IMG/VR virus record: IMGVR_UViG_2923350032_000001
Coordinates: 750-64,749 of that record
DNA length: 64,000 nt
Source of the DNA: a virus
Taxonomy: Duplodnaviria; Heunggongvirae; Uroviricota; Caudoviricetes
Direction: 5' to 3' (one strand)
The notes below the pieces were generated by a model, which was given only the letters and a program-made list of their open reading frames with translations, was not told the DNA's origin and searched no databases. Of the stretch, positions 1 through 20,517 are shown in pieces; the stretch's first letter is position 1, and each line of letters starts with the position of its first letter. The position numbers were made by a program, and so were the translations under genes.

Positions 1-1553
1 ATTGCGTGATTTCCTGAATACGCATGGGATGAAGAAACGCCTGCTGATTTTCAGCCGCACTTAGTTTTTTCTCGTCAGTTTCTGTCTCTAAAGACTTAAA
101 TTGTGGCCGCACATCGTTGTAGTCTACCTTGAATTTGAGCACTTTTTCGTCACGAATCGCATCGGTAATTACATACGAATGCAATTCACGACCAAATACG
201 CTGGCGGTTGTTTCTGAGCCTAAGGCGTTTTCCGGGAAAATAGGGGTACCGGTAAAACCAAACTGATAATAGCGTTTGAATTTCTTCTTCAGGTTTTTCT
301 GCGCTTCTCCAAACTGGCTGCGGTGGCATTCATCAAATATAAACACCACTTGCTGATTGTATACAGGCAGGTCGCTTTCTGCTTTCATCAGGTTATTAAG
401 TTTCTGAATAGTGGTGACGATAATTTGTTATCGTCCTTATCCAGATTTCGTTTAAGACCTGCGGTATTTTCCGAGCCGTTGACGCTGTCTGGCGAAAAAC
501 GCTGATATTCCTTCATGGTCTGGTAATCGAGGTCTTTCCTGTCGACCACGAAGAAGACTTTATCAATAAAGTCCAGTTCAGTTGCCAGACGCGCGGCTTT
601 AAAGCTGGTCAGTGTTTTACCGGAACCGGTGGTGTGCCAGATAAAGCCACCGCTTTCCGGTTTTGACCAGTTCTTCGCTGTAAAGGAACTCTTAATTTTC
701 CACAGAATGCGCTCGGTGGCGGCAATCTGGTACGGTCGCATCACCAGTAGCGTCTGACTACTGTCAAAAACGCTGTAGTTCACCAGAACATTCAGCAGAG
801 TATGTTTCTGGAAAAAGTAGCGGTAAAGTCTTTGAGGTCTTTAATCAGCGTGTTGTCTGATTTCGCCCAGTTCATGGTGAAGTCAAAACTGTTTTTATCG
901 CGCTTTGTCGTGTTGGCAAAATAACGGGTATCGGTGCCGTTAGAAATGACAAACAGTTGCAGATACTTAAACAGGGAATTTTCGCTGTTAAAACTCTCTT
1001 TACTGTAACGATGTATCTGGTTGAAAGCCTCACGAATCGCCACGCCGCGCTTTTTCAGTTCGATTTGCACCAGCGGCAAGCCATTAACCAGGATCGTGAC
1101 GTCATAACGGTTAGCGTGAGAGCCTGCCTGTTCAAATTGCTGGATAATCTGCACCTTATTGCGCATGAGATTCTTTTTATCTATCAAATAGATGTTCTCA
1201 AGTCGCTCGTCATCAAAAATAAAGTCGCAAATATAGTCGATATGGATTTTACGGGTCTTATCCAGAATGCCATCGCTCGGGTTGTCCAGATACTGCTCCG
1301 TGAAACGCCGCCATTCGCTGTCATTAAACACCACACCATTGAGGCTCTGAAGCTGTTCCCGAACATTGGCCAGCATCTCTGACTGAGATTTTACGGCTAT
1401 AAATTCATAGCCCTGATTTTGCAGGTCCTGAATCAGTTCACGTTCCAGGTCCGATTCGCTCTGGTAGCTGTCGCCTGTTGGTTCAGCTTTGATGTACTTA
1501 TCAAGAATGATAAAGTTATTGGATTCAGCAATGGTGTGTGTCTGATGAGTCAT
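1..1553 (-). pseudogene. hsdR: Type I restriction enzyme R subunit (HsdR), N-terminal nuclease domain plus helicase motifs I (GSGKT) and II (DECH); runs off window start; frame broken at two homopolymer runs
   Basis: ORFs 792-1553 and 388-783 plus unlisted frame 1-387 translate to contiguous HsdR-like sequence ([24 protein letters not shown]) only if single-base shifts near 811-815 and 413-420 are allowed. Confidence 0.7.
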
Positions 1554-1674
1554 AGCGCATCCTTTGTGCCGTTTGGCAAGGGCCGGAAGGGGGTTAATGG
1601 TGACTTCCAGCGTGTAAAAAATGGTCTATATACTGACCGGATGTTAAGGTGATCCGGTCGGTAGCAATGGTCAA

Positions 1675-2805
1675 TTAATTACTGACAGTTTCAGGTTTCG
1701 GGAAACTGAACAGTAAATCACGGTAGTATTCGTATTGTTTCTGGCGCAACTCGATTTCACGCGGGAGACCTTCAGTGATGGAGTTGGTCAGGGTGTCGAA
1801 TTTATCGAGTATTTCGACAATGCGAGCTTGTTCTTCTGAAGGTGGTACAGGTATTGGGAATTTTAAAAACATTGGTCGACGAAGTGAGGTAACCGATGAA
1901 CTTACTGATGCTTTTTGAATATAGGTAAAAAAATATGCTGTTATATAGTGATATACAAATCGCGGATTCATAAATGCATTTGGGACAATACGATATGCTC
2001 TCTGATGCAAAGCATATTTACCTTTAGCATAATGAAATACCTTCCCCACCCCGGCGCCATCTCCAGCCGTAATGATTGCTGTTTCATCAAAATCAAATAC
2101 ATTTAACTTTAATGGTTCACGTCCACGTGCATAAAAAATATATTTGCCATGTTCTATAGCATCTTGCGTATCATGGTTACCTGTTCCTATAACAGCCACT
2201 TCCCCCAAAGTCTTCCACTCAACCTCACCCTCTTTAAAACTCAACAACTGGTCGCGATAGTAATTGTACTGTTTTTTACGCATGTTAAGCTCAGCGGTAA
2301 GCTCAGCGGTAAGTGCAGTAAATTTATCCAGAATCCGAACGATTTCAGACTGGATGGCAAGGGATTTTTCTGGGGTATCCGGGCAGGGGATTGGTATCAA
2401 AATAGGTGATACATCACGTGGATAAACATGCGGAACACCACCACCACTCTTAAACTCATGGAGTTGTTGTTGCATATTCATCAAAAAATGATAGCAATAT
2501 CGTGGTAACAAAATATTATGAGGTTTTACAGTAAATGCATCCGATACGAAAATTGGTTCCTCCCACCAACTAACGAATCCCGCATACGCACCAGAACCTG
2601 CGATAACAATTGTTTGTCCGTCGCGATTACTAGTATTATGATAATAAGCTGGTGTACGTCCGCCAGCGACTACGGGGATGGTTCCATCAATAACATCTTT
2701 TTTTGTAATTGATGTGCCTCGCTTTAGTTCAGCTATACTGCCTAGTGTTTTCCACTCAACCTCAACCCCATCCAGCAATTTTTCCAGATAACTCATCTCG
2801 CTCAT
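1675..2805 (-). CDS. hsdS: Type I RM specificity subunit HsdS
   Basis: 376-aa ORF between hsdM and hsdR with two TRD-like halves and central conserved TAEL-TAEL repeat; overlaps hsdM stop. Confidence 0.9.
2289..2312. repeat. two tandem 12-bp units (GCTCAGCGGTAA) encoding TAEL-TAEL in the hsdS central region
   Basis: direct repeat read in sequence; a degenerate third unit follows. Confidence 0.8.
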
Positions 2806-4364
2806 TTCTGCACCTCGCAGCCTTCAATTTCAGCCACAATCGCATCAATATCTTTGCGCAACTGGTCGATTTTGCTGACCGTGATTTTCAGCTCTGCATT
2901 CAACTCAGCGATATCGATAATTTCGCGAGTATCTTTCGCTTCAACATAGCTGCTCACCGACAGGTTATAGTCATTAGCGACAACGGCTTCAAACGCGACA
3001 GATTTCGCCAGATGGGCAACATCTTCCTTGCTGGCAAATACCTGCATAATCTGTTCGATATGAGCATCGGTCAGAATGTTGTTGTTAGTCTCTTTTTTGA
3101 ACAGTTCGCTGGCATCAATAAACTGAACTTTGGTATCCGTTTTATGTTTAGACAGCACCAGAATATTGACGGCAATAGTGGTGCCAAAGAACAGATTCGG
3201 TGCCAGTGAAATCACGGTTTCGACATAGTTATTATCAACCAGATACTGACGGATTTTCTGCTCCGCGCCGCCACGGTAAAAAATACCCGGGAAGCAAACA
3301 ATCGCAGCACGACCTTTGGCAGAAAGATAGTTCAGCGCATGTAGTACAAAGGCGAAGTCAGCTTTTGATTTGGGGGCCAGAACGCCAGCCGGGGCAAAAC
3401 GCTCATCGTTAATCAGAGTCGGGTCATCGCTGCCAATCCATTTCACCGAATACGGCGGGTTAGAAACGATGGCATCAAACGGTTTTTCATCTCTGAAGTG
3501 CGGTTCAGTCAGCGTATTGCCCAGCTTGATATCAAACTTGTCGTAGTTGATGTTGTGCAAAAACATGTTCATACGCGCCAGGTTATAGGTCGTATGGTTG
3601 ATTTCCTGACCAAAAAAACCTTCTTCGATGATATGGTCATCAAACTGTTTTTTAGCCTGCAACAACAGCGAACCGGAGCCTGCTGCCGGGTCGTAGATTT
3701 TGTTAACGTGGGTCTGCCCGTGCATAGCCAGTTGTGCAATCAGCTTAGAGACGTGCTGCGGTGTAAAGAACTCGCCGCCTGACTTACCGGCATTCGCCGC
3801 ATAGTTAGAAATCAGGAACTCATAGGCGTCACCGAACAGGTCAATCTGATGTTCGTGGAAGTCACCAAGTTTTAGCCCTTCAACCCCTTTCAGAACTGCA
3901 GCCAGGCGGGCATTTTTATCTTTAACGGTGTTACCCAGGCGGTTACTGGTAGTATCGAAATCAGCAAACAAACCTTTGATGTCAGCTTCTGAAGGGTAAC
4001 CGTAAGCAGAACTTTCGATAGCAACGAAGATGCTGTTTAAATCCGCATTCAGTCTGTCATTGGTATTTGCTTTCGCAGCTACGTTGCAGAAAAGCTGACT
4101 GGGGTAGATGAAGTAACCTTTGGTTTTGATGGCATCGTCTTTAATGTCATCAGTAATTACGCTGTCATCCAGTTTCGCATAACAGATACTGTCATCACCG
4201 GCTTCAATATAGCTGGAAAAATTTTCGCTGATAAAACGGTAAAAAAGCGCGCCCAAAACGTACTGCTTAAAATCCCATCCATCGACTGAACCCCTGACAT
4301 CGTTAGCAATTTGCCAGATTTGACGATGAAGCTCTGCACGTTGTTGAATACTTGTCATTTTCAT
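2802..4364 (-). CDS. hsdM: Type I RM N6-adenine DNA methyltransferase HsdM
   Basis: 520-aa ORF with NPPY catalytic motif ([10 protein letters not shown]) and AdoMet-binding region ([10 protein letters not shown]). Confidence 0.92.
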
Positions 4365-4540
4365 CCACTTATTTCAGGTTTATGTAATTGGCGGTGATTC
4401 TACAGCAACTTGGATGCTTTAGCAGTTCGGACATTAGGCTACGAATGACCTGCCTAGAGGTTTGTTAAGCCGCAAAGTGCTGGTGCTTTATGTCTGTGAA
4501 GTTTATAATTGTGTACACATAACGAGTACACGAGGTGTTT

Positions 4541-4762
4541 ATGCAATCCATTAACTTCCGTACCGCGCGCGGCAACCTTTCTGAAGTGCTCAACAATGTT
4601 GAGGCCGGGGAAGAGGTTGAAATCACCCGCAGAGGCCGTGAGCCAGCAGTAATTGTCAGCAAGGCTACTTTCGAAGCCTACAAAAAAGCGGCGCTGGATG
4701 CTGAATTTGCATCCCTGTTTGACACCCTGGACTCCACCAACAAGGAACTGGTTAACCGATAA
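4541..4762 (+). CDS. phd: Phd antitoxin (prevent host death)
   Basis: 73-aa product [32 protein letters not shown]... recognised as P1 Phd; stop overlaps doc start. Confidence 0.95.
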
Positions 4763-5142
4763 TGAGGCATATATCACCGGAAGAACTTATTGCGCTTCAT
4801 GATGCGAATATAAACCGCTACGGCGGCCTGCCGGGAATGTCTGATCCGGGTAGGGCAGAGGCCATTATCGGGAGAGTTCAGGCCAGAGTTGCCTACGAAG
4901 AGATCACCGACCTTTTCGAAGTCTCCGCCACCTACCTGGTGGCTACAGCGAGAGGGCATATATTCAATGATGCCAATAAGCGTACCGCGCTAAACAGTGC
5001 GCTGTTATTTCTACGCCGTAACGGGGTGCAGGTATTTGATTCACCTGAACTGGCAGACCTTACCGTAGGGGCTGCGACCGGAGAGATATCTGTATCTTCT
5101 GTCGCCGCCACGTTACGTAGATTGTATGGTTCTGCGGAGTAG
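4762..5142 (+). CDS. doc: Doc toxin (death on curing, Fic-fold kinase)
   Basis: 126-aa product [25 protein letters not shown]... recognised as P1 Doc. Confidence 0.95.
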
Positions 5143-5146
5143 ATTA

Positions 5147-5326
5147 ATGGCACGCAAATACAACAAATTGTCCCGTGAAGCGTTAAAGATGCTTCTTGAT
5201 GGCGTGAGTCGCCGCAAGGTAAAGCAATACCTGGTTGGTAAGCAAATTGGTGCTAGGACCGCTATTGCTGTGTTATGCCGTCAGGAAATGGTTGTGCTTA
5301 AACAGAGAATGCCGGGCAGCAGATAA
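5147..5326 (+). CDS. hypothetical small basic protein downstream of doc
   Basis: ORF 5126-5326, internal ATG at 5147; position matches the P1 post-doc region. Confidence 0.25.
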   Translation: MARKYNKLSREALKMLLDGVSRRKVKQYLVGKQIGARTAIAVLCRQEMVVLKQRMPGSR

Positions 5327-5353
5327 AGCCCAATCAGTGATGAAAGGTGTGAT

Positions 5354-6397
5354 GTGAAAGCCATTATTACTCCCTTTGTACAAAAAGAGCTTGGCGTCGC
5401 CACATTCAAAGTGGATCAGGAAGTCAGAAAGCTGGTGGAGGCTGGCCGTAAATTTATTATGGAGCCGGTGCCGCGTGAGTTAATCGAGCACATGGACGAC
5501 GGCCTCGTTGTTTCCGAGCAAACTATGGCAACAAATGAGGCGTTGCAGCCGTTTTTTAACAGCGATGAACTGTTTCGCCGTATTGGTGGAATTGACTCGC
5601 TGGTGGCGTGGTTGCGCAGGAAAGAGGGGCAATGCCAGGCCGCAGATCGTAGTTGGTGTGACAACCATATTGTCCACGCTAAACGAGACAATAGCGCGGT
5701 GTTGCTGTGCTGGCATCACGATAACCATTACCGGATGCGTGGTTTTAATGAGCTGAAAGAAACGCTGCATAATAATCGCGTTAACTGGATACTGGATGTC
5801 GCCCGTCAGGAAATGGGCCTTTCAAATAGCCATGATTTAAGTATTCAGGAGCTGTGCTGGTGGGCTTTCATGCGCAACATGATGCACCTGATGCCGGAAG
5901 AAGTCTGCCGCATATCAATAAATAAGATGAAGGCTGCTCCGCAGGATAGCGGACCTTTGAAAGAGGCGGATATTCGCCCGTATGACGATCGTGCTACAGC
6001 ATATGTTCAGATGATGGAAGAACGCGCCGCGCCGATGCGTGCAAAAGTATGCCCTGTGGATGTTGACTCCGACCCTGGCACGGCGCATTTCAAAATACCA
6101 AAACTGCAATCGCTAAAATTACCCGAGTACATGGACTTTGTTGCTTCCCGTCCGTGCTGTGGATGTGGAGCTGCGGGAGCTGGCGCTCGCATTACGCCTT
6201 ATATCGTTCGTCATAGTCGATTATGCGCGCATGACATTTACGCAATTCCTCTGTGCCAGTCATGCCAGCGTGATATTGAGCGTGACCGCGATAATTGGGA
6301 GAAGACGCACGGCAGGCTGGCGATGCATCAACGATTGTTCTTTGATTACGCGCTTGGAGTCGGCGCTATCACAAGTCACTCGTCGAGCGTTAGATAA
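5354..6397 (+). CDS. hypothetical protein, post-doc region, Cys-rich C-terminus
   Basis: 347-aa ORF with GTG start; position equivalent to pdcB in P1 gene order. Confidence 0.5.
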
Positions 6398-6398
6398 A

Positions 6399-6415
6399 AT
6401 TGCTCTAATGTATTG
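6399..6415 (+). promoter_or_regulatory. C1 operator (ATTGCTCTAATgtaTTg) upstream of lpa
   Basis: match to the 17-bp asymmetric P1 C1 operator consensus ATTGCTCTAATAAATTT. Confidence 0.6.
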
Positions 6416-6485
6416 CTATTTCTTTAATCGAGGGTATTATATTCGTCGTTGATTAGTTGACATGGGCTAATCAGTAGGTGACAGG

Positions 6486-6938
6486 ATGTTACTTAACTGG
6501 CAGGGACGCCACTTCATGGAAATAAATCACTCACGAATTACATCGTATGAGATTGCGGATTACATGATTCGCACTAAATCTCTTCTATCAGCGAAAGAAC
6601 TCGCAGCAATCCTTGAAAAGGAATACCCGCATCTGGATGTCGATAAGCGCGATGTTTATCTGCGCTTAAAGGCTATCGCTGTGTCTAAGTATTCGTCTGT
6701 TTTGATTGATGACAGTACACGCCCACGTAGATTTCAGATCCACTCTCTGAATCCTGAATTCTTTCGCCGTAGCCGCGCTCCGCGCCGGTTTGATGAAAAA
6801 CTCCAGAACGAACTCTATATGACGCAGGACGAAAAGGAACGCCGGGAGCACCAGCCTTGGGTAATGGCGCGTCAACTTTTCAATAAGGTGGCCCGTCAGC
6901 ACCGTCATTACGGTAATGCCACATCCGCACGTATCTGA
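6486..6938 (+). CDS. lpa: late promoter activator Lpa-like protein (true start may be the internal Met at about 6516)
   Basis: 150-aa ORF directly upstream of pacA and downstream of a C1 operator, as in P1. Confidence 0.55.
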   Translation: MLLNWQGRHFMEINHSRITSYEIADYMIRTKSLLSAKELAAILEKEYPHLDVDKRDVYLRLKAIAVSKYSSVLIDDSTRPRRFQIHSLNPEFFRRSRAPRRFDEKLQNELYMTQDEKERREHQPWVMARQLFNKVARQHRHYGNATSARI

Positions 6939-7023
6939 TTGATTGCTTGCCCGTTCCGGGCCTTTTGACATGTGACTTTCGTTACCCTCGCGTCAAAAAG
7001 AGTTTTTACGAAAGGAAGCATAA

Positions 7024-8217
7024 GTGACCTGGGACGATCACAAGAAGAATTTTGCTCGCCTGGCGCGAGATGGTGGTTACACCATCGCACAGTATGCCGC
7101 CGAGTTTAATCTTAACCCTAATACCGCACGTCGTTATCTCCGTGCCTTCAAAGAAGACTCCAGGACTGCGGACAGCCGCAAGCCAAATAAGCCAGTCAGG
7201 AAGCCACTAAAAAGCATGATCATTGATCACTCTAATGATCAACATGCAGGTGATCATATTGCGGCTGAAATAGCGGAAAAACAGAGAGTTAATGCCGTTA
7301 TCAGTGCCGCAGTCGAGAATGCGAAGCGCCAAAATAAGCGCATAAATGATCGTTCAGATGATCATGACGTGATCACCCGCGCCCACCGGACCTTACGTGA
7401 TCGCCTGGAACGCGACACCCTGGATGATGATGGTGAACGCTTTGAATTCGAAGCTGGCGATTACCTGATAGATAACGTTGAAGCGCGGAAGGCCGCGCGC
7501 GCTATGTTGCGTCGGTCCGGGGCCGATGTTCTGGAAACCACTCTTCTTGAAAAGTCTCTTTCTCATCTCCTTATGCTGGAGAACGCCAGGGATACGTGTA
7601 TTCGCCTGGTGCAGGAAATGCGCGATCAGCAAAAAGACGATGATGAAGGTACTCCGCCTGAATACCGTATCGCGAGCATGCTAAACAGCTGTTCCGCGCA
7701 GATAAGCAGCCTGATCAACACCATTTACAGCATCCGGAATAACTATCGAAAAGAAAGCCGGGAGGCGGAAAAGCACGCTTTGTCTATGGGGCAAGCTGGC
7801 ATTGTTAAGCTGGCATACGAACGAAAGCGTGAAAATAACTGGTCAGTGCTGGAAGCAGCTGAATTCATCGAGGCGCATGGCGGGAAAGTGCCGCCCCTGA
7901 TGCTGGAGCAAATCAAAGCCGATCTGCGTGCTCCTAAGACCAATACCGATGATGAGGAAAGGCAAACAGCCGTCGGTGGCCCTTCTCTTGAAGATCTGGA
8001 CAAAGTTGCGCGAGAACGGGCCGCCAACCGCCGCGCCGATGCCGCATTGTGGATTGAGCAGCGTAGGGAAGAAATCGCCGATATCGTTGATACAGGCGGT
8101 TATGGAGATGTTGATACTGAAGGTGTATCAAACGACCCATGGCTGGAACAAGACCTGGACGAAGACGAGGAGGAAGACGAAGAAGTTACCCGCAAGCTAT
8201 ACGGGGATGATGATTAA
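7024..8217 (+). CDS. pacA: terminase small subunit / pac-recognition protein PacA
   Basis: 397-aa ORF with GTG start; contains the pac site; acidic C-terminus; recognised as P1 PacA. Confidence 0.92.
7208..7375. other. P1-type pac packaging site: four TGATCA hexamers (7208-7247) and three TGATCR hexamers (7347-7375) flanking the cleavage region
   Basis: hexamers with embedded GATC Dam sites read directly in sequence inside pacA. Confidence 0.9.
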
Positions 8218-9701
8218 TGGCCAGAAGTTGCGTAACGGATCCACGTTGGCGCGAGCTGGTGGCGCTATATCGTTATGACTGGATTGCTGCCGCTGATGTT
8301 TTGTTCGGCAAAACACCTACCTGGCAGCAGGATCTGATTATTGAGTCTGTGCAGGAACAGGGTAGCAAGACATCTGTTTCGTCTGGTCACGGTACCGGGA
8401 AATCAGACATGACTTCTATCATGATCATGTTGTTCATAATCATGTATCCCGGTGCCCGCGCCATTATCGTTGCGAACAAAATTCAGCAGGTAATGACCGG
8501 TATATTCAAGTACATCAAGATAAACTGGGCTACTGCCACCAGCCGTTTCCCATGGCTTGCTGATTATTTTGTTCTGACAGAAACCGCTTTCTATGAGGTT
8601 ACAGGTAAAGGTGTATGGACTGTAGTACCGAAGGGCTTTCGTCTGGGAAGTGAAGAAGCTCTCGCCGGTGAACACGCAGATCATCTTCTGTATATTATCG
8701 ATGAAGCCTCCGGTGTCAGTGATAGAGCTTTCGGTATCATCACCGGTGCTCTTACCGGACAGGATAACCGCATCTTATTACTGTCACAGCCTACACGCCC
8801 AAGCGGCTATTTCTACGATACACACCATAAACTGGCCAAGCGTCCTGGTAACCCTGATGGCGTTTATACGGCGATCACGCTTAACAGTGAGGAATCACCG
8901 TTGGTAACGCCAGCATTTATCAAAATGAAGCTGGCGGAGTACGGCGGGCGTGATAACCCTATGTACATGATTAAGGTACGCGGCCTATTCCCTAAATCAC
9001 AGGATGGCTTCCTTCTTGGACGTGATGAGGTTGAACGTGCAACGCGGCGGAAAGTCAAGATTGCCAAAGGATGGGGCTGGCTTGCATGTGTGGACGTTGC
9101 TGGTGGTACGGGACGGGATAAGTCCGTTATCAATATCATGATGGTGTCCGGCCAGCGAAATAAACGCCGTGTAATCAACTATCGAATGCTGGAATACACA
9201 GACGTTACAGAAACGCAGCTTGCCGCCAAAATTTTCGCAGAATGTAATCCTGAGCGATTCCCAAATATCACCATAGCGATAGACGGCGATGGGCTGGGTA
9301 AAGCAACGGCGGATCTGATGTACGAGTATTATGGTATTACCGTACAGCGTATACGCTGGGGTAAAAAGATGCATAGCCGTGAAGATAAGAGCCTGTACTT
9401 TGATAAACGTGCTTATGCCAACGTTCAAGCCGCAGAGGCCGTAAAATCTGGTCGTATGAGACTGGATAAGGGTAATGAAACTATTGAGGAAGCGTCGAAA
9501 ATCCCTGTAGGGATTAACTCCGCAGGTCAATGGAAGGTGATGAGTAAGGAGGATATGAAGAAAAAACTCAACCTGCACTCACCAGACCATTGGGATACAT
9601 ATTGTTTCGCTATGCTGGCGGATTATGTTCCCCAGGATGAAGTGCTTAGCGTCGAAGACGAAGCGCAGGTTGATGAAGCTCTGGCATGGCTTAATGAATG
9701 A
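8217..9701 (+). CDS. pacB: terminase large subunit PacB
   Basis: 494-aa ORF overlapping pacA stop; recognised as P1 PacB. Confidence 0.92.
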
Positions 9702-9703
9702 AT

Positions 9704-9720
9704 ATTTGCTCTAATAAATT
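9704..9720 (+). promoter_or_regulatory. C1 operator (ATTTGCTCTAATAAATT) heading the c4-icd-ant-like module
   Basis: consensus match immediately after pacB stop. Confidence 0.65.
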
Positions 9721-9789
9721 GTGTTTTTTAACTGCCGATGTTACATTGAACCTGACCTCTTGCGCCTTGAGGCATTTTCGGTTTATGCT

Positions 9790-9885
9790 TATCAGGCACC
9801 TCATTAAAACGGGTGCCGGGATTGAGACCCCGGATAATGCAAAAGGCGACACAGACGCCAAAAGCGTCTTTTTTTTGTGTCATGC
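9790..9885 (+). ncRNA. candidate c4-like antisense immunity RNA ending at hairpin GACGCcaaaaGCGTC + T-run
   Basis: structured untranslated leader between operator and icd-like ORF; terminator-like hairpin at 9862-9885; segments complementary to sequence near the icd RBS. Confidence 0.3.
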
Positions 9886-10061
9886 CATCGCACAGCCATA
9901 CGTAGCGTTTAGCTCAGAGATCAATGGTAGTGCTGGCTGGGCTGCCGAAAGGCAGGCCGGTTCCCTTTTGCGCCGGTAGTCTCAACCCAGTCAGTGCTAC
10001 CGCCATTGAGATTGAGACCTCACGCGGTAGCTCCTTAAATTAGCAAAAGGAGGCTGCCATT

Positions 10062-10283
10062 GTGGCTACTATCCCTACCCCTGCTCATCCTGAATTTATC
10101 TGGCGCTTTTACTCCTGCCAAAAACGTCACTATCACTTCGTTATTGCACCGACAGAAGATGAGGCACGTTCTCAGCTTCCTGACGCCCCATGTATTTTCT
10201 CTGCCCGTTTTTCCACTGATTCACGCAATTCTCTCAGTTACTGGTGCCTCCCTGTTAACGCTTCTGCTCAGGAGGGACTATGA
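10062..10283 (+). CDS. icd: Icd-like protein (interference with cell division)
   Basis: 73-aa ORF (EFIWRFYSCQKRHYHFVIAPTEDEARSQLPD...) overlapping start of downstream ant-like gene; paralog of ORF 23512-23733. Confidence 0.7.
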   Translation: MATIPTPAHPEFIWRFYSCQKRHYHFVIAPTEDEARSQLPDAPCIFSARFSTDSRNSLSYWCLPVNASAQEGL

Positions 10284-11392
10284 GAACATCGTTAGTTACC
10301 CGTGAAGAGATGATCGAGGCAATTGAACAGCACACTGCCTGTATCAGTACCAGGGATATACCTGGCGTTATTGCCAACTACTTCATGATCACCAAACAAC
10401 TTTACCGGAGAAAGGACAAGAACGCGGTTCACCGTATCCTGCTGTCTGATATCCGCGAATACCTGCTCGAACAGGGGCATCTGAATTACGCAACCGTCGC
10501 AGCCGAAGCACGCAAGGAGGCACACAGAATGAAAGCAACTAACGTTAAATCAGAAAAAATTTATGCACCTTCAGTTCAGGAATCGGAACTGGTGGTTGTT
10601 CAGAATCAGCCGGATGAAATTCCCGTTCTGGAATGGCAGGGAGTACGTGTCGTGACAACCGAAACTCTTGCTAGAGGGTATGGGGTCGATGAAGCCAATA
10701 TTCGCAACAATTTGTCTCGCAACCTTGACCGCTTTGAAGAAGGTAAGCATTACTTTCTTCTAACAGGTTTAAAATTAAGAGAATTTAAGAACAGAGTAAC
10801 CGGAAGTTACTCTGTTGGTAAGAACGCCAGAAGCCTTACACTCTGGACAGAGCGCGGCGCTGCACGCATGTCTAAGATCGTGGACACAAATGAAGCATGG
10901 GCATTCTTTGAAAAACTGGAAGACAGCTACTTCCGACAAAAAGAACAGCAACCGATCGCAATCCCCCAGACGCTTCCTGAAGCCCTACGCCTGGCTGCCG
11001 AACTGGCTGAACAAAAGCAGCTTCTGGAACAGAAAGCCCACCAGCTAAATCAGCAGCTGGTGGCCGCCGCTCCTAAGGTCGATTTTGCCGACCGGGTATC
11101 AGTAGCTAAAGGGATCCTGATTGGGAATTTTGCAAAGGTTGTTGGACTTAAGCAAAACGCGCTGTTTGCCTGGTTACGGGAGAACGGCATTCTGATAGCG
11201 TCCGGCGGGCGTAAAAATGTGCCGTTCCAGCAGTACATAAACGCCGGATATTTCACAGTGAAAGAAGTGGTGCTGGATGATGAAGATGGCTACCAGATAC
11301 GGCTGACGCCCCAATTAACGGGGAAAGGACAACAGTGGTTGACGCGTAAACTGCTCGATGCTGGCTTGTTAAAACCGGTGGCGGCTGAATAA
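10280..11392 (+). CDS. antirepressor-like protein with Bro-N-like middle region and KilA-C/ANT-type C-terminal domain
   Basis: 370-aa ORF; C-terminal 130 aa closely parallel the C-terminus of KilA (25415-26215). Confidence 0.7.
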   Translation: MRTSLVTREEMIEAIEQHTACISTRDIPGVIANYFMITKQLYRRKDKNAVHRILLSDIREYLLEQGHLNYATVAAEARKEAHRMKATNVKSEKIYAPSVQESELVVVQNQPDEIPVLEWQGVRVVTTETLARGYGVDEANIRNNLSRNLDRFEEGKHYFLLTGLKLREFKNRVTGSYSVGKNARSLTLWTERGAARMSKIVDTNEAWAFFEKLEDSYFRQKEQQPIAIPQTLPEALRLAAELAEQKQLLEQKAHQLNQQLVAAAPKVDFADRVSVAKGILIGNFAKVVGLKQNALFAWLRENGILIASGGRKNVPFQQYINAGYFTVKEVVLDDEDGYQIRLTPQLTGKGQQWLTRKLLDAGLLKPVAAE

Positions 11393-11424
11393 TGGAAGAA
11401 TGCCCGGTTGATGCCGGGCATAAT

Positions 11425-12276
11425 TTATTGCGCGCTTTCGGGGTTGTCGTTTACTGGCTGCCCCTTCTTAGTTTTACGACTGCGCGTAACTGATGCGGCT
11501 GATTTGACCTTTTTCTCTTCGCGAGTGATGGCAATTTGTTTTTTTACATTTTCAATATCTGCCAGGCGATATATTTTTGCCTGCGGCCAGCGGTCGCAGA
11601 TGATCGGTTCTATGGAGTCATAAAGGCTAAATTTTGCTTTTTCGAATTCACCGTTGATGATAATTCCATCACGGAGAGTTTCATCGCAGATAAACACGCC
11701 ACACAGTGGCACATGGTAACTAACTGATTTACCATCATTGTAGTTAGGGCTACTGGAAATGTAGTGGACGCGCAGCATTGTTTCGCTAAAGCCGTGTACG
11801 CGCATACGGAATTTTTCATCCTCCGGGTACTGCTTCATTAGCTCTTTTGTTGCTTCCAGGTTCTCTATGTATTTCGCACTGTGCTCATTGATCCCCGCGC
11901 TTTTTTGGATGCGAATGTCCTTATCAATCAGATGAATAATGCGGCCAGCGGTCATGTTGACGCTGTTCACAGCCTCTGTCTGATAAGTTGTAACCTTACG
12001 CACACCGCGAAGGATGTTAGGCACTGGATATAAAATAGTCTTTGGGATATTGAGGTCTGGGTACTGTTCCAGTTCCCGCGCCATTAAAGTCCATTTATCA
12101 ATTTCAGCCTGAATGCTGTCAGTTTCTTTGAACGGTAGAACGACAACCGGGCGTACAGGACGACCGTCGCTGGCTGTATCAACGTGTTGGGCGCGTGCAA
12201 CAGCTTTTTTTAGAAAGAGATCCCTGAAGCTGACGAACTCCTGGTACAGTTGTTCGCCGTAGACATAATTTATCAT
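11425..12276 (-). CDS. c1: C1 repressor of lysis
   Basis: 283-aa product MINYVYGEQLYQEFVSFRDLFLKKAVARAQ... recognised as P1 C1. Confidence 0.95.
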   Translation of the reverse strand: MINYVYGEQLYQEFVSFRDLFLKKAVARAQHVDTASDGRPVRPVVVLPFKETDSIQAEIDKWTLMARELEQYPDLNIPKTILYPVPNILRGVRKVTTYQTEAVNSVNMTAGRIIHLIDKDIRIQKSAGINEHSAKYIENLEATKELMKQYPEDEKFRMRVHGFSETMLRVHYISSSPNYNDGKSVSYHVPLCGVFICDETLRDGIIINGEFEKAKFSLYDSIEPIICDRWPQAKIYRLADIENVKKQIAITREEKKVKSAASVTRSRKTKKGQPVNDNPESAQ

Positions 12277-12386
12277 TGATCCTCCTCCAGAATTGACATG
12301 GCCAATAACGCCCGGCTGAGAAAACCGGTCATTACTGACCTATATTATAGAGGGATCAAACAAAAATAATAGATTTATTAGTGCAT

Positions 12387-12596
12387 TTATTGTGAGTCTA
12401 ACTGGTTAGTTGCCATGAGATATTCGATTGTGTCAGTGAGGTCATCCAGGTCGTCTTGGGTGATGCGGTACTCCTGATTGGATATCTTTGAGTAGTGTTC
12501 AGCAATGGCGCGGGCAGCGTCGGTTTCGGCAGGGTCTACAGATAAAGCGTTAGAGCAATGTCTAACGTCGTCGATGGTTGGTTGAATGAAAGCCAT
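12387..12596 (-). CDS. coi: Coi (C1 inactivator)
   Basis: 69-aa ORF immediately upstream of c1 on the same strand. Confidence 0.8.
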   Translation of the reverse strand: MAFIQPTIDDVRHCSNALSVDPAETDAARAIAEHYSKISNQEYRITQDDLDDLTDTIEYLMATNQLDSQ

Positions 12597-12835
12597 AATT
12601 ATGCCTCACTGTATTGACAACACAGAGCCTGAAGCTCTGACCTACTGTTTCACCCATGATCCATGCTGGGGTAATCTAACAACATTGCGCTGTGTGTAAG
12701 ATGAGCAATGCATAGCTGTAATGCCGTTGTATAAGGTTTCCCTGTTTGCTCATTTCCTTCTGAGCCGCTCTACAACGCTGAAGACACATTAAATAGTGAA
12801 TCCAAAGTCGTATTACGTAACGGCGGCAAAACTAT

Positions 12836-12851
12836 AATTTATTAGAGCAAT
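12836..12851 (-). promoter_or_regulatory. C1 operator (inverted orientation)
   Basis: AATTTATTAGAGCAAT is the reverse complement of the consensus. Confidence 0.65.
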
Positions 12852-12917
12852 TGTCAAACAACTATGAAAAACAATCCAGTTTTTGGTTGGTGGAGTGGGA
12901 TTTTTCTCTCAAAATTT

Positions 12918-12934
12918 ATTGCTCTAATAATTCT
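12918..12934 (+). promoter_or_regulatory. C1 operator (ATTGCTCTAATAATTCT)
   Basis: consensus match; forms a divergent pair with 12836-12851 upstream of coi/c1. Confidence 0.65.
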
Positions 12935-12977
12935 TGATTTTTATGCGCAGCTGGACGTAAACTCCTCTTCAGACCTA

Positions 12978-13011
12978 ATAACTTCGTATAGCATACATTA
13001 TACGAAGTTAT
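12978..13011. other. loxP site (ATAACTTCGTATA-GCATACAT-TATACGAAGTTAT)
   Basis: exact 34-bp loxP sequence read in the window. Confidence 0.97.
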
Positions 13012-13429
13012 CTTAAGGGTTATTGAACATGATCAATTTACCTGTAAATCCATACAGTTCAATACCTTATCAGGTCAAATAGTGATCACTTGATCATTTG
13101 ATCAAGGTTGCGCTACGTAAAATCTGCGAAATGTTGGCAGTGTTAGTGCTCCAGATTTTGCGTAGCGCACTTAGCACCACCAATCAATCAGAGGTGAAAA
13201 ATGGGATATTCAGCTGCTAAAGTGTCCACTCATATTGAGCTTGAGAAAAACCGTGGTTACTGGCGGGCAAAAGGGTTTGATCGTGATAGTTGTCAACTGT
13301 CATTATCGCGCGGTGAAGAGAAAATAGAGCGCACGCGCGGTCGCTGGCGTTTCTATGACGAGAACCATAAACAGGTAAAGGCAGAGCCGATCCTGTACAC
13401 TTTACTTAAAACCATTATCTGAGTGTTAA

Positions 13430-14461
13430 ATGTCCAATTTACTGACCGTACACCAAAATTTGCCTGCATTACCGGTCGATGCAACGAGTGATGAGGTTCG
13501 CAAGAACCTGATGGACATGTTCAGGGATCGCCAGGCGTTTTCTGAGCATACCTGGAAAATGCTTCTGTCCGTTTGCCGGTCGTGGGCGGCATGGTGCAAG
13601 TTGAATAACCGGAAATGGTTTCCCGCAGAACCTGAAGATGTTCGCGATTATCTTCTATATCTTCAGGCGCGCGGTCTGGCAGTAAAAACTATCCAGCAAC
13701 ATTTGGGCCAGCTAAACATGCTTCATCGTCGGTCCGGGCTGCCACGACCAAGTGACAGTAATGCTGTTTCACTGGTCATGCGACGGATCCGAAAAGAAAA
13801 CGTTGATGCCGGTGAACGTGCAAAACAGGCTCTAGCGTTCGAACGCACTGATTTCGACCAGGTTCGTTCACTCATGGAAAATAGCGATCGCTGCCAGGAT
13901 ATACGTAATCTGGCATTTCTGGGGATTGCTTATAACACCCTGTTACGTATAGCCGAAATTACCAGGATCAGGGTTAAAGATATCTCACGTACTGACGGTG
14001 GGAGAATGTTAATTCATATTGGCAGAACGAAAACGCTGGTTAGCACCGCAGGTGTAGAGAAGGCACTTAGCCTGGGGGTAACTAAACTGGTCGAGCGATG
14101 GATTTCCGTCTCTGGTGTAGCTGATGATCCGAATAACTACCTGTTTTGCCGGGTCAGAAAAAATGGTGTTGCCGCGCCATCTGCCACCAGCCAGCTATCA
14201 ACTCGCGCCCTGGAAGGGATTTTTGAAGCAACTCATCGATTGATTTACGGCGCTAAGGATGACTCTGGTCAGAGATACCTGGCCTGGTCTGGACACAGTG
14301 CCCGTGTCGGAGCCGCGCGAGATATGGCCCGCGCCGGAGTTTCAATACCGGAGATCATGCAAGCTGGTGGCTGGACCAACGTAAATATTGTCATGAACTA
14401 TATCCGTAACCTGGATAGTGAAACAGGGGCAATGGTGCGCCTGCTGGAAGATGGCGATTAG
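13430..14461 (+). CDS. cre: Cre tyrosine recombinase
   Basis: 343-aa product MSNLLTVHQNLPALPVDATSDEVRKNLMDMFRDRQAFSEHTWKMLLSVCRSWAAWCKLNN... Confidence 0.97.
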   Translation: MSNLLTVHQNLPALPVDATSDEVRKNLMDMFRDRQAFSEHTWKMLLSVCRSWAAWCKLNNRKWFPAEPEDVRDYLLYLQARGLAVKTIQQHLGQLNMLHRRSGLPRPSDSNAVSLVMRRIRKENVDAGERAKQALAFERTDFDQVRSLMENSDRCQDIRNLAFLGIAYNTLLRIAEITRIRVKDISRTDGGRMLIHIGRTKTLVSTAGVEKALSLGVTKLVERWISVSGVADDPNNYLFCRVRKNGVAAPSATSQLSTRALEGIFEATHRLIYGAKDDSGQRYLAWSGHSARVGAARDMARAGVSIPEIMQAGGWTNVNIVMNYIRNLDSETGAMVRLLEDGD

Positions 14462-14477
14462 CCATTAACGCGTAAAT

Positions 14478-14494
14478 GATTGCTCTAATTCTTT
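14478..14494 (+). promoter_or_regulatory. C1 operator-like site upstream of cra
   Basis: ATTGCTCTAATtcTTTg. Confidence 0.5.
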
Positions 14495-14511
14495 GATATT
14501 TATGGTGACAT

Positions 14512-14823
14512 ATGAGAAAGGATTTCAACATCGACGGAAAATATGTAGTGCTGTCTGTAAGCACTAATATTCAGTCGCCAGCCGTCATTGTCACTGTAAA
14601 GCTGAGCGATAGAATGCCTGATATTGATTCAATATCCATTGCGTTCCCTGTCAAAAGTATGCGTGGTGCTGAACATTTCGTGATGAATGCCACCGAGGAA
14701 GAAGCACGGCGCGGTTTTGCTAAAGTGATGTCTGAGTTTGGCGAATTTTTGGGGCACGTTGACAAAGCCCTTTCAATCAGTTCAGCAAGATCCAAAGCGT
14801 TAACAGCTTCCATGATGAAATAA
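14512..14823 (+). CDS. cra: Cra (cre-associated function)
   Basis: 103-aa ORF immediately downstream of cre, as in P1. Confidence 0.75.
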   Translation: MRKDFNIDGKYVVLSVSTNIQSPAVIVTVKLSDRMPDIDSISIAFPVKSMRGAEHFVMNATEEEARRGFAKVMSEFGEFLGHVDKALSISSARSKALTASMMK

Positions 14824-14848
14824 AAAAAAGCCTGGCAAGGAGCCAGGC
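14822..14848 (-). terminator. hairpin GCCTGGC-aagga-GCCAGGC with U-tract on the minus strand
   Basis: 7-bp perfect stem flanked by an A8 run on the plus strand; canonical for minus-strand transcripts, weak for plus. Confidence 0.5.
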
Positions 14849-14955
14849 TGCACAAAAGAGCGGGTTTGTATTCCGCATCCAATCAATCAAGAAGGAGTAT
14901 AGCACACAGGTACTGAAGTGAAAAAATGTGATTCGCGATAAACAAAATATCTACC

Positions 14956-14972
14956 ATTGCTCTAATTGATTG
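14956..14972 (+). promoter_or_regulatory. C1 operator upstream of ref followed by a TATAAT -10
   Basis: ATTGCTCTAATtgATTg then TATAAT at about 14974. Confidence 0.6.
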
Positions 14973-15039
14973 TTATAATTGAGCCGCAGTTTTTGTCAAC
15001 TACGAAGACGTTGCCATTACTTCACTCCTTGACATCATT

Positions 15040-15065
15040 GGCGGCCATTAGGCCGCCTTTTTTTT
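15040..15065 (+). terminator. terminator/attenuator-like hairpin GGCGGCC-atta-GGCCGCC + T8 just upstream of ref ATG
   Basis: perfect 7-bp GC stem followed by TTTTTTTT, 7 nt before the ref start codon. Confidence 0.45.
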
Positions 15066-15071
15066 GACCAT

Positions 15072-15647
15072 ATGAAAACAATCGAACAAAAAATTGAACA
15101 GTGCCGCAAGTGGCAGAAGGCAGCCAGAGAACGAGCGATCGCTCGGCAACGGGAGAAGTTGGCTGATCCGGTCTGGCGAGAATCTCAATATCAGAAAATG
15201 CGGGATACTATCGACCGCCGTATCGCTAAACAGAAAGAGCGCCCACCAGCCAGCAAAACGCGGAAAAGTGCGGTAAAAATAAAATCTCGTGGCTTGAAGG
15301 GACGAACACCGACGGCAGAGGAACGGCACATAGCCAATGCTCTTGGCGCTCTCCCCTGCATTGCGTGCTATATGCATGGAGTAATATCTGAAGAGGTGTC
15401 TCTGCACCATATTTCCGGTCGTACCGCGCCTGGTTGTCACAAAAAGCAATTGCCACTTTGTAGATGGCACCACCAGCATGCAGCACCGGCTGAAGTAAGA
15501 GCAAAATACCCCTGGCTGGTCCCTGTTCATGCCGATGGTGTGGTTGGAGGCAAGAAAGAATTCACCCTGCTGAACAAGTCAGAGATGGAGTTACTGGCTG
15601 ACGCCTATGAGGGGTCGTCTCAGAAAACGGAAAATAAAGCACGCTAA
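15072..15647 (+). CDS. ref: Ref (recombination enhancement function, HNH-type); last 11 codons supplied by the transposon inverted repeat
   Basis: 191-aa ORF matching P1 Ref through ...ELLADAYE; the Tn21-type IR starts at 15611 inside the ORF. Confidence 0.85.
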
Positions 15648-18610
15648 GCCGGTTGCAGAGGCCGTAGCGGCCTGAACTTCCCCGCGCCGATCTTGGCGCT
15701 GCTGCGCCATAGGTAATCACCGGTCAGGTTGATGTGCTCCCAGCCGAGTGGCGACAGGTACTGCAATAGCGAGTCATCGACGGCATGACCATTGCCGCGC
15801 AACGCATGCGCCGCACGCTCCAGGTAGACCGTGTTCCACAGCACGATGGCCGCCGTCACCAGGTTGAGGCCGCTGGCCCGGTAGCGCTGCTGCTCGAAAC
15901 TGCGGTCACGGATTTCACCAAGGCGGTTGAAGAACACGGCACGGGCCAGCGCATTGCGCGCCTCGCCCTTGTTCAGCCCGGCATGCACGCGGCGGCGTAG
16001 CTCGACGCTTTGCAGCCAGTCGAGGATGAACAGCGTGCGCTCGATGCGGCCCAACTCGCGCAGCGCGACGGCCAAGCCGTTCTGGCGCGGGTAGCTGCCG
16101 AGTTTCCTGAGCATCAGCGAGGCCGTCACCGTGCCCTGCTTGATCGAGGTGGCCAGCCGCAGGATTTCGTCCCAATGGGCGCGGACGTGCTTGATGTTGA
16201 GCGTGCCGCCGATCATCGGCTTGAGCGCGTCATAGGCGGCATCGCCCTTCGGGATGTAGAGCTTGGTGTCGCCCAGGTCGCGGATGCGCGGCGCGAAGCG
16301 GAAGCCCAAGAGGTGCATCAGGGCGAAGACGTGATCGGTGAAGCCCGCCGTGTCGGTGTAGTGCTCCTCGATCCGCAGGTCGGATTCGTGGTACAGCAGG
16401 CCGTCGAGCACGTAGGTTGAGTCGCGCAGGCCGACATTGACCACCTTGGTGTGGAATGGCGCGTATTGGTCGGAGATGTGGGTGTAGAAAGTCCGTCCTG
16501 GGCTGCTGCCATATTTTGGGTTGATGTGCCCCGTGCTCTTTGCCTTGCTAGCGGTTCGGAAATTCTGTCCGTCCGATGATGATGTGGTGCCATCGCCCCA
16601 GTGCCCGGCAAAGGGATGCCGAAACTGAGCGTTGACCAGTTCAGCCAACGCTGTCGAGTACGTTTCGTCGCGGGTATGCCAGGCTTGCAGCCAAGCGAGC
16701 TTCGCGTAGGTCGTGCCGGGGCAGGACTCGGCCATCTTGGTCAGGCCCAGGTTGATCGCGTCGGCCAGGATCGTGGTCAACAACAGGTTCTTGTCCTTGG
16801 CCAGATCGCCCGATTTCAAGTGCGTGAAGTGCCGGGTGAAGCCCGTCCACTCATCGACTTCGAGCAGCAGTTCGGTGATCTTGACGTGCGGCAGGACCAT
16901 GGCTGTCTGGTCTATCAGCGCCTGCGCGGTGTCGGGCACCGCCGCATCCAGCGGCGTGATCTTCAAGCCCGACTCGGTGATGATGGCATCCGGCAGGTCG
17001 TTGGCTGCCGCCATGCGGTTGACGGTGGCAAGTTGTGCTTCCAGCAGCGTCAGCCGCTCATGCAGATATTGTTCGCAGTCGGTGGCCACGGCCAGCGGCA
17101 ATTCGCTGGACTGCTTGAGGCTGGTGAACTTCTCGGGCGGTACCAGGTAGTCCTCGAAGTCCTTGAACTGGCGTGAACCCTGCACCCAGATGTCGCCCGA
17201 GCGCAGGGAGTTCTTCAACTCGGACAGCGCGCACAGTTCGTAGTAGCGCCGGTCGATGCCGGCGTCGGTCATCACCAGTTTCTGCCAGCGCGGCTTGATG
17301 AAGCCGGTCGGTGCATCGGCTGGCAGCTTGCGGGCGTTGTCGGTGTTCATGCCGCGCAGCACCTCAATGGCATCAAGCACGTTTTTGGCGGCGGGCGCGG
17401 CCCGCAGCTTGAGCACGGCAAGGAATTCCGGTGCATAGCGGCGCAGGGTGGCGTAGCTCTCGCCGATGCGATGCAGGAAATCGAAGTCATCGGGTTGCGC
17501 GAGCTTCTGCGCCTCGGTGACGCTCTCGGCAAAGGAATCCCAGGACATGACGGCCTCGATGGCGGCAAACGCATCGCGGCCTGATTGCTTGGCGTCGATC
17601 AGCGCCTGACCGATGCGCCCGTACAGACGTACCTTGGCGTTGATGGCCTTGCCTGACGCCTGGAACTGCTGCTGATGCTTATTCTTGGCAGCGTTAAACA
17701 GCTTACCCAGGATGCGGTCGTGCAGGTCGATGATTTCGTCGGTGACGGTGGCCATGCCCTCGGTGGCCAGCGCCACGAGAGTGGCGTAGCGCCGTTGCGG
17801 CTCGAATTTGGCCAGGTCGGCGGGTGTCATCTGGCCGCCCTCGCGGGCAATCTTGAGCAGGCGGTTCTGGTGAACCAGCCGCTCGATGCCGGTAGGCAGA
17901 TCGAGTGCCTGCCATGCCTTGAGGCGTTCGATGTGTTCCAGCATATGCCGCGAATTTGGCTTGGCCGGAGACTGGCGCAACCAAGCCAACCAGGTCGTCT
18001 TGCCGTTGTCCCGGCGCTTGAGCAGATCGTCGAGGCGGCGGCGATGCGCGTCCGCCAGTGGTTCGGCCAAGGCGTCGTAGATGCGCCGGTTAGCACGGGT
18101 GATCGCCTCTGCACTCGCCCGCTCGACGGCGTTGAGGGCGGGCAGAATGACCGACTGCCGCCGCAGGTGCCCGATCAAGGCGCTGGCCAGCACGATGCCT
18201 TTGTCGGTTTGCATCGCCAGCTCGGTCAGCATCTGGACGGCCTGCCGGTAATGGCTCATGGTGAAGGGCCGGAAACCGAACACGGTTTGCAGCTCGCTCA
18301 GGTGCTCGCGCCGGGTCTGCTCCCGCTGGCCGTACTCGTTCCAGCTTTCGACGCCGACCTTGAGCTGGTCGGCGACCAGCTTCAACAAGGGCGGGAACGG
18401 TAGTTCATCGACGCCCAGGATGACGCCGGGAAAGCGCAGGTAACAGAGCTGCACCGCGAAGCCCAGCCGATTGGCTGGCCCGCGCCGCTGTCGGATGATC
18501 GAGAGGTCGGTATCGTTGAATGTGTAATGTCGGATCAGGTCGTCCTTGGAGTCCGGCAACGCCAGCAGGCTTTCCCGCTCGGCGGCGGACAGGATGGAAC
18601 GACGTGGCAT
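15644..18610 (-). CDS. tnpA: Tn3-family transposase TnpA (Tn21 type)
   Basis: 988-aa [42 protein letters not shown]... Confidence 0.95.
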
Positions 18611-18612
18611 AT

Positions 18613-19173
18613 TTACTGATCCGTTCTCAAGTATTGATACAGGGTTTCGCGACTGATTCCGAATTCACGAGCAAGCTTGGTCTTTTGCTCGCCAGCCTCG
18701 ATACGTTGGCGCAGTTCGGCAATACGCTCAGACGACAGGGATTTCTTCCTGCCACGGTAAGCCCCGCGTTGCTTGGCGAGCGCAATACCCTCGCGCTGAC
18801 GCTCGCGGATCAGGGCGCGCTCGAACTCGGCGAACGCGCCCATCACCGAGAGCATCAGGTTCGCCATCGGAGAGTCTTCGCCAGTAAAACTGAGGTGTTC
18901 CTTGACGAATTCGATATGCACGCCGCGTTGTGTCAGCGTTTGCACGATCCGGCGCAAATCATCGAGATTGCGCGCCAGGCGATCCATGCTATGCACCACC
19001 ACGGTGTCGCCGGTGCGGGCGAAGCTTATCAGCGCTTCCAGTTGCGGACGCTTGACATCCTTGCCGGATGCCTTGTCGCTAAAAGCGCGATCAACCTTGA
19101 CGCCTTCCAGTTGCCGTTCCGGGTTCTGGTCGAAGGTGCTGACCCTGATATACCCAATGCGCTGTCCAGTCAT
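18613..19173 (-). CDS. tnpR: serine resolvase TnpR
   Basis: 186-aa [24 protein letters not shown]... with catalytic Ser and C-terminal HTH. Confidence 0.95.
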
Positions 19174-19300
19174 GGAATTCCCTGCAAAATGTCAGGGAAG
19201 ACTCTATGACCTTCAACGAGATATGTCAATAAATTCAAAATTCAATCCTATCCTGACGCAATTTACACATGGCATCTGACATCAGGTTAGGGTATGCCTC
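19174..19300. other. probable res (resolution) site upstream of tnpR
   Basis: position relative to tnpR; subsites not mapped. Confidence 0.4.
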
Positions 19301-19405
19301 AACCTGACGGCGGCGAATCACAAGCGTCCGGTTTGACGCTGGTTTCGGTCGCAGTGCTGGCCCGCGCCTGGAAGCGCTGATAGCACTCCAGCCCGCAGAA
19401 ATGCT

Positions 19406-20503: not shown

Positions 20504-20517
20504 CCATATCAGCCCCC

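Follow-up and report, generated by a model that had tools for sequence, protein, structure and literature searches.

The window analysed here is a 64,000-nt stretch of DNA in which hsdM, hsdS and hsdR lie on the minus strand in the gene order of Type IC restriction-modification systems, an arrangement proposed in an earlier note on this DNA and borne out by Pfam support for all three genes. That note had placed the locus at 1 to 4364, which holds for hsdM and hsdS; only the first ~1555 nt of hsdR lie there, and the remainder is found at 63189 to 64000 or falls outside the window. The cassette and its surroundings comprise the following features:

63114 to 63188, no strand assigned: cassette-side flank from the hsdR stop to the P1 homology (pap-pmgT spacer)
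63189 to 64000, minus strand: 3' portion of hsdR, its last 270 codons plus stop (812 nt; 100% identical to pL9-1 45215 to 44404)
1 to 1553, minus strand: 5' portion of hsdR, codons 1 to ~518, leaving the window at position 1
1554 to 1674, minus strand: hsdS-hsdR intergenic region (121 nt)
1675 to 2805, minus strand: hsdS, specificity subunit (376 aa; Pfam Methylase_S in two stretches)
2802 to 4364, minus strand: hsdM, Type IC modification subunit (520 aa; Pfam N6_Mtase, E=2.7e-121, and HsdM_N)
4365 to 4464, no strand assigned: cassette-side flank upstream of hsdM
4541 to 4762, plus strand: phd antitoxin gene of the P1 backbone (Pfam PhdYeFM_antitox; RefSeq annotation of pL9-1)
4762 to 5142, plus strand: doc toxin gene of the P1 backbone (Pfam Fic/DOC; pL9-1 annotation)

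RefSeq starts hsdM at 4358, giving a protein of 518 aa, and the hsdS start overlaps the hsdM stop by 4 nt (ATGA). The exact HsdS protein is known as WP_085704300.1 (P0001). Full-length hsdR has 3117 nt, about 750 nt of which fall outside the window between its two parts. By analogy with EcoR124, the hsdS-hsdR gap is presumably the seat of a separate hsdR promoter, and the region upstream of hsdM (4365 to 4464) probably serves as a promoter region as well. A consensus scan for promoters in both intergenic regions found none, the number of hits being no higher than in shuffled sequences.

Homology to P1 extends over window positions 58935 to 63113 (P1 80306 to 84482), breaks off there and returns at 4465 (P1 87970). 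The cassette of ~6.1 kb sits between pap and phd and takes the place of P1 pmgT-humD, which agrees with the earlier description of the locus as accessory cargo at a place where P1 has other genes, upstream of phd. In non-P1 contexts the cassette is shared only up to about window position 4412. Beyond the junction, a Phd/YefM antitoxin gene followed by a Fic/Doc toxin gene constitutes the P1 phd-doc addiction module, and over the stretch that includes it, identity to P1 is 97.5%. The junctions agree with those annotated in the P1 RefSeq record, whose feature notes give the flanks of the hsd loci EcoDXXI and R124/3. Among PLSDB plasmids, 644 carry a contiguous hsdM-phd-doc junction, and matches to the locus occur in 1623 of 5426 complete E. 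coli genomes; EcoR124-family cassettes typically lie next to phd-doc, as here. P1-derived flanks are common to R124/3, pDXX1, pIP1206 and P1-like plasmids, consistent with a P1-like element being the source from which the plasmid-borne Type IC cassettes spread along with phd-doc. The P1 genome annotation contains an earlier hint of such a link.

Type I systems are grouped into families according to subunit exchange, antibody cross-reaction and sequence. HsdM and HsdR are both close in sequence to members of the EcoR124 family: HsdM is identical to EcoR124 HsdM (PDB 7bst_D) at 514 of 520 residues (98.8%), and the intact HsdR of a sister plasmid matches EcoR124 HsdR (2w00) over 1 to 1038 with 2294 bits. 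HsdS has a conserved helix region at both ends and a conserved centre bearing the TAEL repeat, with two TRDs in between:

1822 to 2214, minus strand: TRD2, HsdS aa 198 to 328, for the second half-site (about one quarter identical to EcoR124I TRD2, counted over the aligned part only)
2215 to 2373, minus strand: HsdS central conserved region, aa 145 to 197, with the helix that sets the TRD spacing
2286 to 2313, minus strand: 12-nt tandem repeat, two copies of TACCGCTGAGCT (coding strand) plus 4 nt, encoding TAEL-TAEL
2374 to 2751, minus strand: TRD1, HsdS aa 19 to 144, for the first half-site (~26% identical to EcoR124I TRD1, as in the protein P0099)

The N-terminal 18, central 53 and C-terminal 48 aa of HsdS equal those of EcoR124I HsdS (7bst_A) bar one residue, the sole mismatch of the central region, which lies in the adjoining PCPD(T/N)PEK motif. 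The locus is thus a Type IC (EcoR124-family) restriction-modification cassette, a known kind of system with an uncharacterised specificity allele. Judging from the near-identity of HsdM and HsdR, its subunits would be expected to complement EcoR124 components.

Three-frame translation and alignment to plasmid pL9-1 (E. coli L9, NZ_CP142045.1), which gave 0 mismatches and 2 gaps, revealed two 1-nt deletions that break the hsdR frame, one after position 816 (CC to C on the coding strand) and one after 423 (A4 to A3). Both had been missed in the earlier note. The window copy therefore does not encode an intact restriction subunit unless the deletions are assembly errors; its reading frames run from 1553 to 792, from 783 to 388 and, in the third frame, to position 1. 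Pfam assigns HSDR_N to the first fragment and ResIII plus SWI2_SNF2 to the second. As the first frameshift ends translation beyond the nuclease domain but short of the motor domains, modification without restriction is predicted, and we infer that the window copy should methylate and not restrict, with the same reservation about assembly.

The two deletions are absent from ten other loci, namely pL9-1, eight loci that encode exactly the HsdS of the window and, for the first deletion only, phage vB_EcoM-673R5. At each of those eight loci HsdR has 1038 aa. Neither deletion occurs in pL9-1 or in the EC0885 plasmid, which gave the best database matches. Over ~60 kb the window differs from pL9-1 by three 1-nt indels only, two in hsdR and a third in an intergenic T-run (T6 to T7). 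All three fall in short homopolymer runs (CC, AAAA and the T-run), a pattern that errors of long-read assembly also leave. We give appreciable weight, short of an even chance, to the reading that the system is r+ m+ and that both frameshifts are homopolymer errors of the assembly. It would account for three homopolymer length changes, for an hsdR that is intact in every other copy of this allele, and for the exact database look-up of the truncated 253-aa HsdR fragment, which retrieved no gene product equal to it. Against it, the ~2.4 kb of hsdR in the window make up a small part of the ~60 kb compared and yet contain two of the three indels, for which a rough estimate gives ~0.5% under random placement, and no gene other than hsdR is hit by any of the three. 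In nature, moreover, hsdR is commonly lost while hsdMS are kept, which also counts against assembly error.

The frameshifts may instead be biological. The fuller reading built on this, to which we assign slightly less than even odds, is that of a natural r-m+, P1-derived plasmid of ~64.75 kb that retains just the Type IC methyltransferase (M2S), with an uncharacterised bipartite specificity and a 7-nt interval between methylated positions. If it is true, host DNA would be marked, and hence shielded from sister plasmids with an intact enzyme, while the plasmid would exert no restriction of its own. Such a plasmid would also be shorn of much of the phage genome.

The repeat in HsdS was recovered by Tandem Repeats Finder with period 12, 2.3 copies and 100% matches, and a perfectly periodic stretch of 28 nt is far above chance for 4.8 kb. 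The TAELTAEL codons lie at 2287 to 2310; the two 12-bp units previously placed at 2289 to 2312 are the same array in another register. The repeat is homologous to that of EcoR124, and the TACCGCTGAGCT unit occurs three times in phage vB_EcoM-673R5 and five times in plasmid C of E. coli S30. How far apart the methylated bases lie, 7 versus 8, is fixed by the repeat number (PMC3874165, PMC12707154), so the two-TAEL central helix probably places 7 nt between the methylated positions. The earlier note had equated two repeats with an N6 motif. However, the Type IC HsdS of pIP1206 has three TAEL units and yet recognises the N6 motif CCAGN6RTTG (bioRxiv 10.1101/2020.06.07.138552). This case is consistent with the methylation-interval rule and implies that "two repeats = N6" is not general: what can be predicted from the TAEL count is the methylation interval and not the number of N.

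Natural HsdS variants carry one, two or three TAEL units, two- and three-repeat alleles both being common, and one allele carries five. This range, together with the occurrence of an identical TRD2 with two and with three units and the recorded switch from EcoR124 to EcoR124/3 by unequal crossing-over (PMC3874165), would suit a frequent phase-variation switch that lets a population toggle between two specificities. We consider this very improbable: the array has just two 12-nt copies, exactly two units are present in every locus with the HsdS allele of the window, the best-matching of 5.8 billion proteins include no three-unit form of its TRD pair, and the hsdS of the five-unit allele was already broken by IS1.

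Type I specificity resides in the TRDs. The TRD1 of the window also occurs in other HsdS proteins, joined there to two further types of TRD2, and the identical TRD2 is paired with at least 25 different TRD1 types. P0099 combines the true EcoR124I TRD1 with the TRD2 of the window, which implies that the TRDs of the window and those of EcoR124I are distinct modules. Since both TRDs are only ~25% identical to those of EcoR124I, the recognition site GAAN6RTCG put forward in the earlier note is not expected, and the EcoR124I site should not be copied onto this locus. TRDs unrelated to the EcoR124 family had been named in the earlier note as a finding that would speak against its assignment, and an identity of about one quarter to EcoR124I goes part of the way there. 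The rival reading of an EcoR124I isoschizomer, with GAAN6RTCG methylated and restricted by virtue of two TAEL repeats, would fit the equal repeat number and the near-identical HsdM, HsdR and HsdS framework, but neither TRD is the same as in EcoR124I HsdS and P0099 shows the modules to be separate, which makes this reading very improbable.

The predicted target is a bipartite site of a sequence other than GAAN6RTCG whose methylated positions are separated by 7 nt. The literature consulted (type IC, Cronobacter and E2348/69 methylomes; EcoprrI and EcoDXXI papers) yielded no half-site assignment for either TRD. The ST131 methylome, considered as a source of half-sites, deals with other Type I families, and pIP1206, with its published Type IC motif, was rejected as a key because its TRDs are unrelated to those of the window. 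The DFAST label "EcoprrI subunit S" in AP027478 was weighed as a clue to TRD2 and set aside.

Altogether, we favour, with a probability of about 0.85, a Type IC cassette in a P1-like IncY phage-plasmid that has a site other than that of EcoR124I and is predicted to be r-m+ as sequenced. In such a system HsdM2-HsdS1 would methylate adenines of a bipartite asymmetric site, each half-site being read by one TRD and the spacing being set by the two-TAEL helix, and a complex with intact HsdR would translocate along and cut unmodified DNA. The window copy may be restriction-deficient. Otherwise the significance reaches little past annotation. The Type IC system is of the textbook kind and lies where such systems usually do.

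The Type IC prototypes EcoR124I and EcoR124II (plasmids R124 and R124/3) share with the window the gene order, a near-identical HsdR and HsdS framework and P1-derived sequence just past hsdR, and EcoR124I has the same 12-nt TAEL unit, likewise in two copies. They differ in both TRDs (~25% identical), and thus in their half-sites, and in that hsdR is frameshifted in the window. EcoDXXI (pDXX1), also Type IC, has the P1 flanks seen in the window, with phd-doc ahead of hsdM and the pap-pmgT spacer past hsdR (P1 RefSeq annotation), whereas it carries three TAEL units, against two here, and recognises TCAN7RTTC (PMC3874165). RM.EcoST101IX of the IncF plasmid pIP1206 (Tn6602; CCAGN6RTTG) shares with the window the doc-phd-hsdM-hsdS-hsdR module and its P1-derived flanks, there set in an IS1 composite transposon on a conjugative plasmid (bioRxiv 10.1101/2020.06.07.138552); unlike the window it has three TAEL units, TRDs of 25-26% identity and an intact hsdR. 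In the P1-like phage vB_EcoM-673R5 the corresponding P1 site is likewise occupied by a Type IC cassette, with other TRDs and three TAEL units. Plasmid pL9-1 is identical to window positions 1 to 19405 bar two bases and carries the same hsdS allele, and is set apart by its intact hsdR and ~69 kb more DNA.

The cassette consists of three hsd genes on the minus strand beside phd and doc on the plus strand.

4364..2802, minus strand: hsdM, 520 aa, with Pfam N6_Mtase and HsdM_N
2805..1675, minus strand: hsdS, 376 aa, with Pfam Methylase_S in two stretches
from 1553 and running off the window start, minus strand: 5' part of hsdR, with Pfam HSDR_N, ResIII and SWI2_SNF2 on fragments
63189-64000, minus strand: 3' end of hsdR (last 812 nt); ~750 nt are missing between the window ends
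4541-4762, plus strand: phd, with Pfam PhdYeFM
4762-5142, plus strand: doc, with Pfam Fic/Doc

The hsdS ATG overlaps the hsdM TGA as ATGA, and a 121-nt gap separates hsdS from hsdR. PADLOC models labelled the three hsd proteins as Type I MTase, specificity subunit and REase. The window HsdM differs from EcoR124 HsdM (PDB 7bst_D) at 6 of 520 residues, EcoR124 HsdR (2w00) is matched over residues 1-1038 by the intact HsdR of the sister plasmid pL9-1 (2294 bits), and HsdS is near-perfectly matched to EcoR124I HsdS (7bst_A) over its first 18 and last 48 residues and in the central conserved region. Based on these subunit matches and on the gene order hsdM-hsdS-hsdR, which the earlier note had read correctly, the locus is assigned to the Type IC family.

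The same note had implied GAAN6RTCG as the recognition site, which depends on the two target-recognition domains of HsdS.

HsdS aa 19-144: TRD1, about a quarter identical to EcoR124I in the alignment
HsdS aa 198-328: TRD2, about a quarter identical to EcoR124I in the alignment, part of it unalignable

Given this divergence, and since a literature search found no published half-site for TRD1 or TRD2, GAAN6RTCG is not expected for the window HsdS. Its 120 best HsdS relatives show the two domains as independent modules: TRD2 (99-100% identity) is combined there with 25 or more TRD1 types, among them the genuine EcoR124I TRD1 (protein P0099) and the pIP1206 TRD1 (protein P0102), and TRD1 with a further two kinds of TRD2. 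The exact TRD1-TRD2 pair occurs in PLSDB only in pL9-1, the identical HsdS (WP_085704300.1, P0001) is present on ~22 contigs, and 99% variants were found in Cronobacter sakazakii.

Translation and Tandem Repeats Finder (12-nt unit, 2.3 copies, 100% matches, 2286-2313) confirmed the two TAEL units; the interval 2289-2312 given previously describes this array read in a different register. The TAEL count fixes the distance between both methylated positions, this being 7 with two units (EcoR124I) and 8 with three (EcoDXXI, EcoR124II, EcoprrI), and shifts through unequal crossing-over (PMC3874165, PMC12707154). Two units do not equal N6 as a general rule, because the number of Ns also depends on the length of each half-site: the pIP1206 HsdS has three units and the published motif CCAGN6RTTG (bioRxiv 10.1101/2020.06.07.138552), which by analogy with EcoDXXI would correspond to an interval of 8. 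For the window HsdS, the prediction that can be supported is a distance of 7. Alleles with two units are not unusual: in 40 records taken at even steps from 1313 matching records of complete E. coli genomes, two-unit alleles numbered 19 and three-unit alleles 16, and a single record carried five units. One-unit HsdS proteins also exist (P0038, P0064). In PLSDB the window's TRD2 occurs with two as well as three units; every locus examined with its hsdS allele has two, and no three-unit version of the TRD pair was present among the top protein matches. The five-unit allele of that sample, the Type IC hsdS of E. coli S30 plasmid C (locus L014, NZ_CP010234.1 12808-15367), carries its five perfect units at locus positions 1251-1310 and is already broken by IS1, which shows that the repeat is able to expand once hsdS is no longer constrained.

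In the Type IC family M2S1 binds a bipartite site and methylates one adenine per half-site, and the M2S1 of the window would be expected to do likewise; with HsdR added, the complex would become an endonuclease that translocates at the expense of ATP and cleaves unmodified DNA at distant positions. From the window copy as sequenced, only the methyltransferase would form. Compared to pL9-1, window positions 1-19405 contain no mismatch and two gaps only, both within hsdR and unnoticed in the earlier note: on the coding strand, CC to C at ~816 and AAAA to AAA at ~423. The first breaks the frame after residue ~246, past the nuclease domain and ahead of the helicase motifs, and the second follows ~130 codons beyond. 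Both sites are undeleted in pL9-1 and in all eight places encoding identical HsdS, where HsdR is 1038 aa (8/8). An assembly error could also have produced these frameshifts, as all three 1-nt indels relative to pL9-1, including the sole other one (T6 to T7 in an intergenic run at 42267), are homopolymer changes; however, two of the three sit in ~2.4 kb of the ~60 kb compared, by our own estimate a ~0.5% event under random placement. This clustering favours real inactivation of hsdR, to which we assign a probability of roughly 55-60%.

The window is almost identical to pL9-1 (NZ_CP142045.1), the P1-like IncY plasmid of E. coli L9 (133,989 bp). As hsdR is split across both window ends ~750 nt apart, the source appears to be circular, with a size of ~64.75 kb. 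It lacks ~69 kb of pL9-1 (89300-133989, beginning with a transglycosylase gene, and 1-24246, including the mer/integron resistance region) and so may have arisen by deletion from a P1-like phage-plasmid. The breakpoints of rearrangement relative to pL9-1 are occupied by an IS26 copy and an IS91-family element, at 19680-20504 and 57243-58940. At 22550-22605 lies a 9-nt tandem repeat, CACCACCAG x6.2, with no ORF of at least 60 aa across it; pL9-1 is two units (18 nt) shorter here, which makes it a variable-number repeat. In addition to the Type IC enzyme, the element has a predicted second DNA methyltransferase, a 1013-aa Dam-family adenine methyltransferase ORF (43510-46551); the 391-aa ORF after it (46916-48091) is annotated in pL9-1 as TnpB-family RNA-guided endonuclease.

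The view of the locus as accessory cargo upstream of phd was borne out by comparison with P1. Homology covers window 58935-63113 (P1 80306-84482), ends just before pmgT and resumes at 4465 (P1 87970, the end of humD), so that a ~6.1 kb cassette replaces 3487 bp of P1 with pmgT, pmgU, pmgV, upfM, upfN, upfO, hot, lxr and humD. This arrangement is already known. In the P1 RefSeq notes, 84263-84482 and 84399-84482 are given as matches to DNA lying past the hsd loci of EcoDXXI and R124/3, and 87969-88647 (phd-doc) as a match to the DNA upstream of EcoDXXI hsd. As many as 644 PLSDB plasmids contain hsdM, phd and doc joined contiguously, and matches to the whole locus occur in 1146 plasmids and in 1623 of the 5426 complete E. 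coli genomes; in non-P1 contexts, sharing is limited to the stretch between the hsdR stop and a point ~48 nt upstream of hsdM. The conjugative IncF plasmid pIP1206 (locus L017, NC_010558.1 27139-34181) carries pdcA-doc-phd-hsdM-hsdS-hsdR with the same P1-derived flanks on both sides as the window, and IS1 adjoins its hsdR; here phd-doc and the Type IC cassette appear to have moved out of a P1-like element as a unit. Altogether, the locus is a commonplace Type IC system in the setting where this family is normally found; its specificity allele is uncharacterised, and its restriction gene may have been inactivated.
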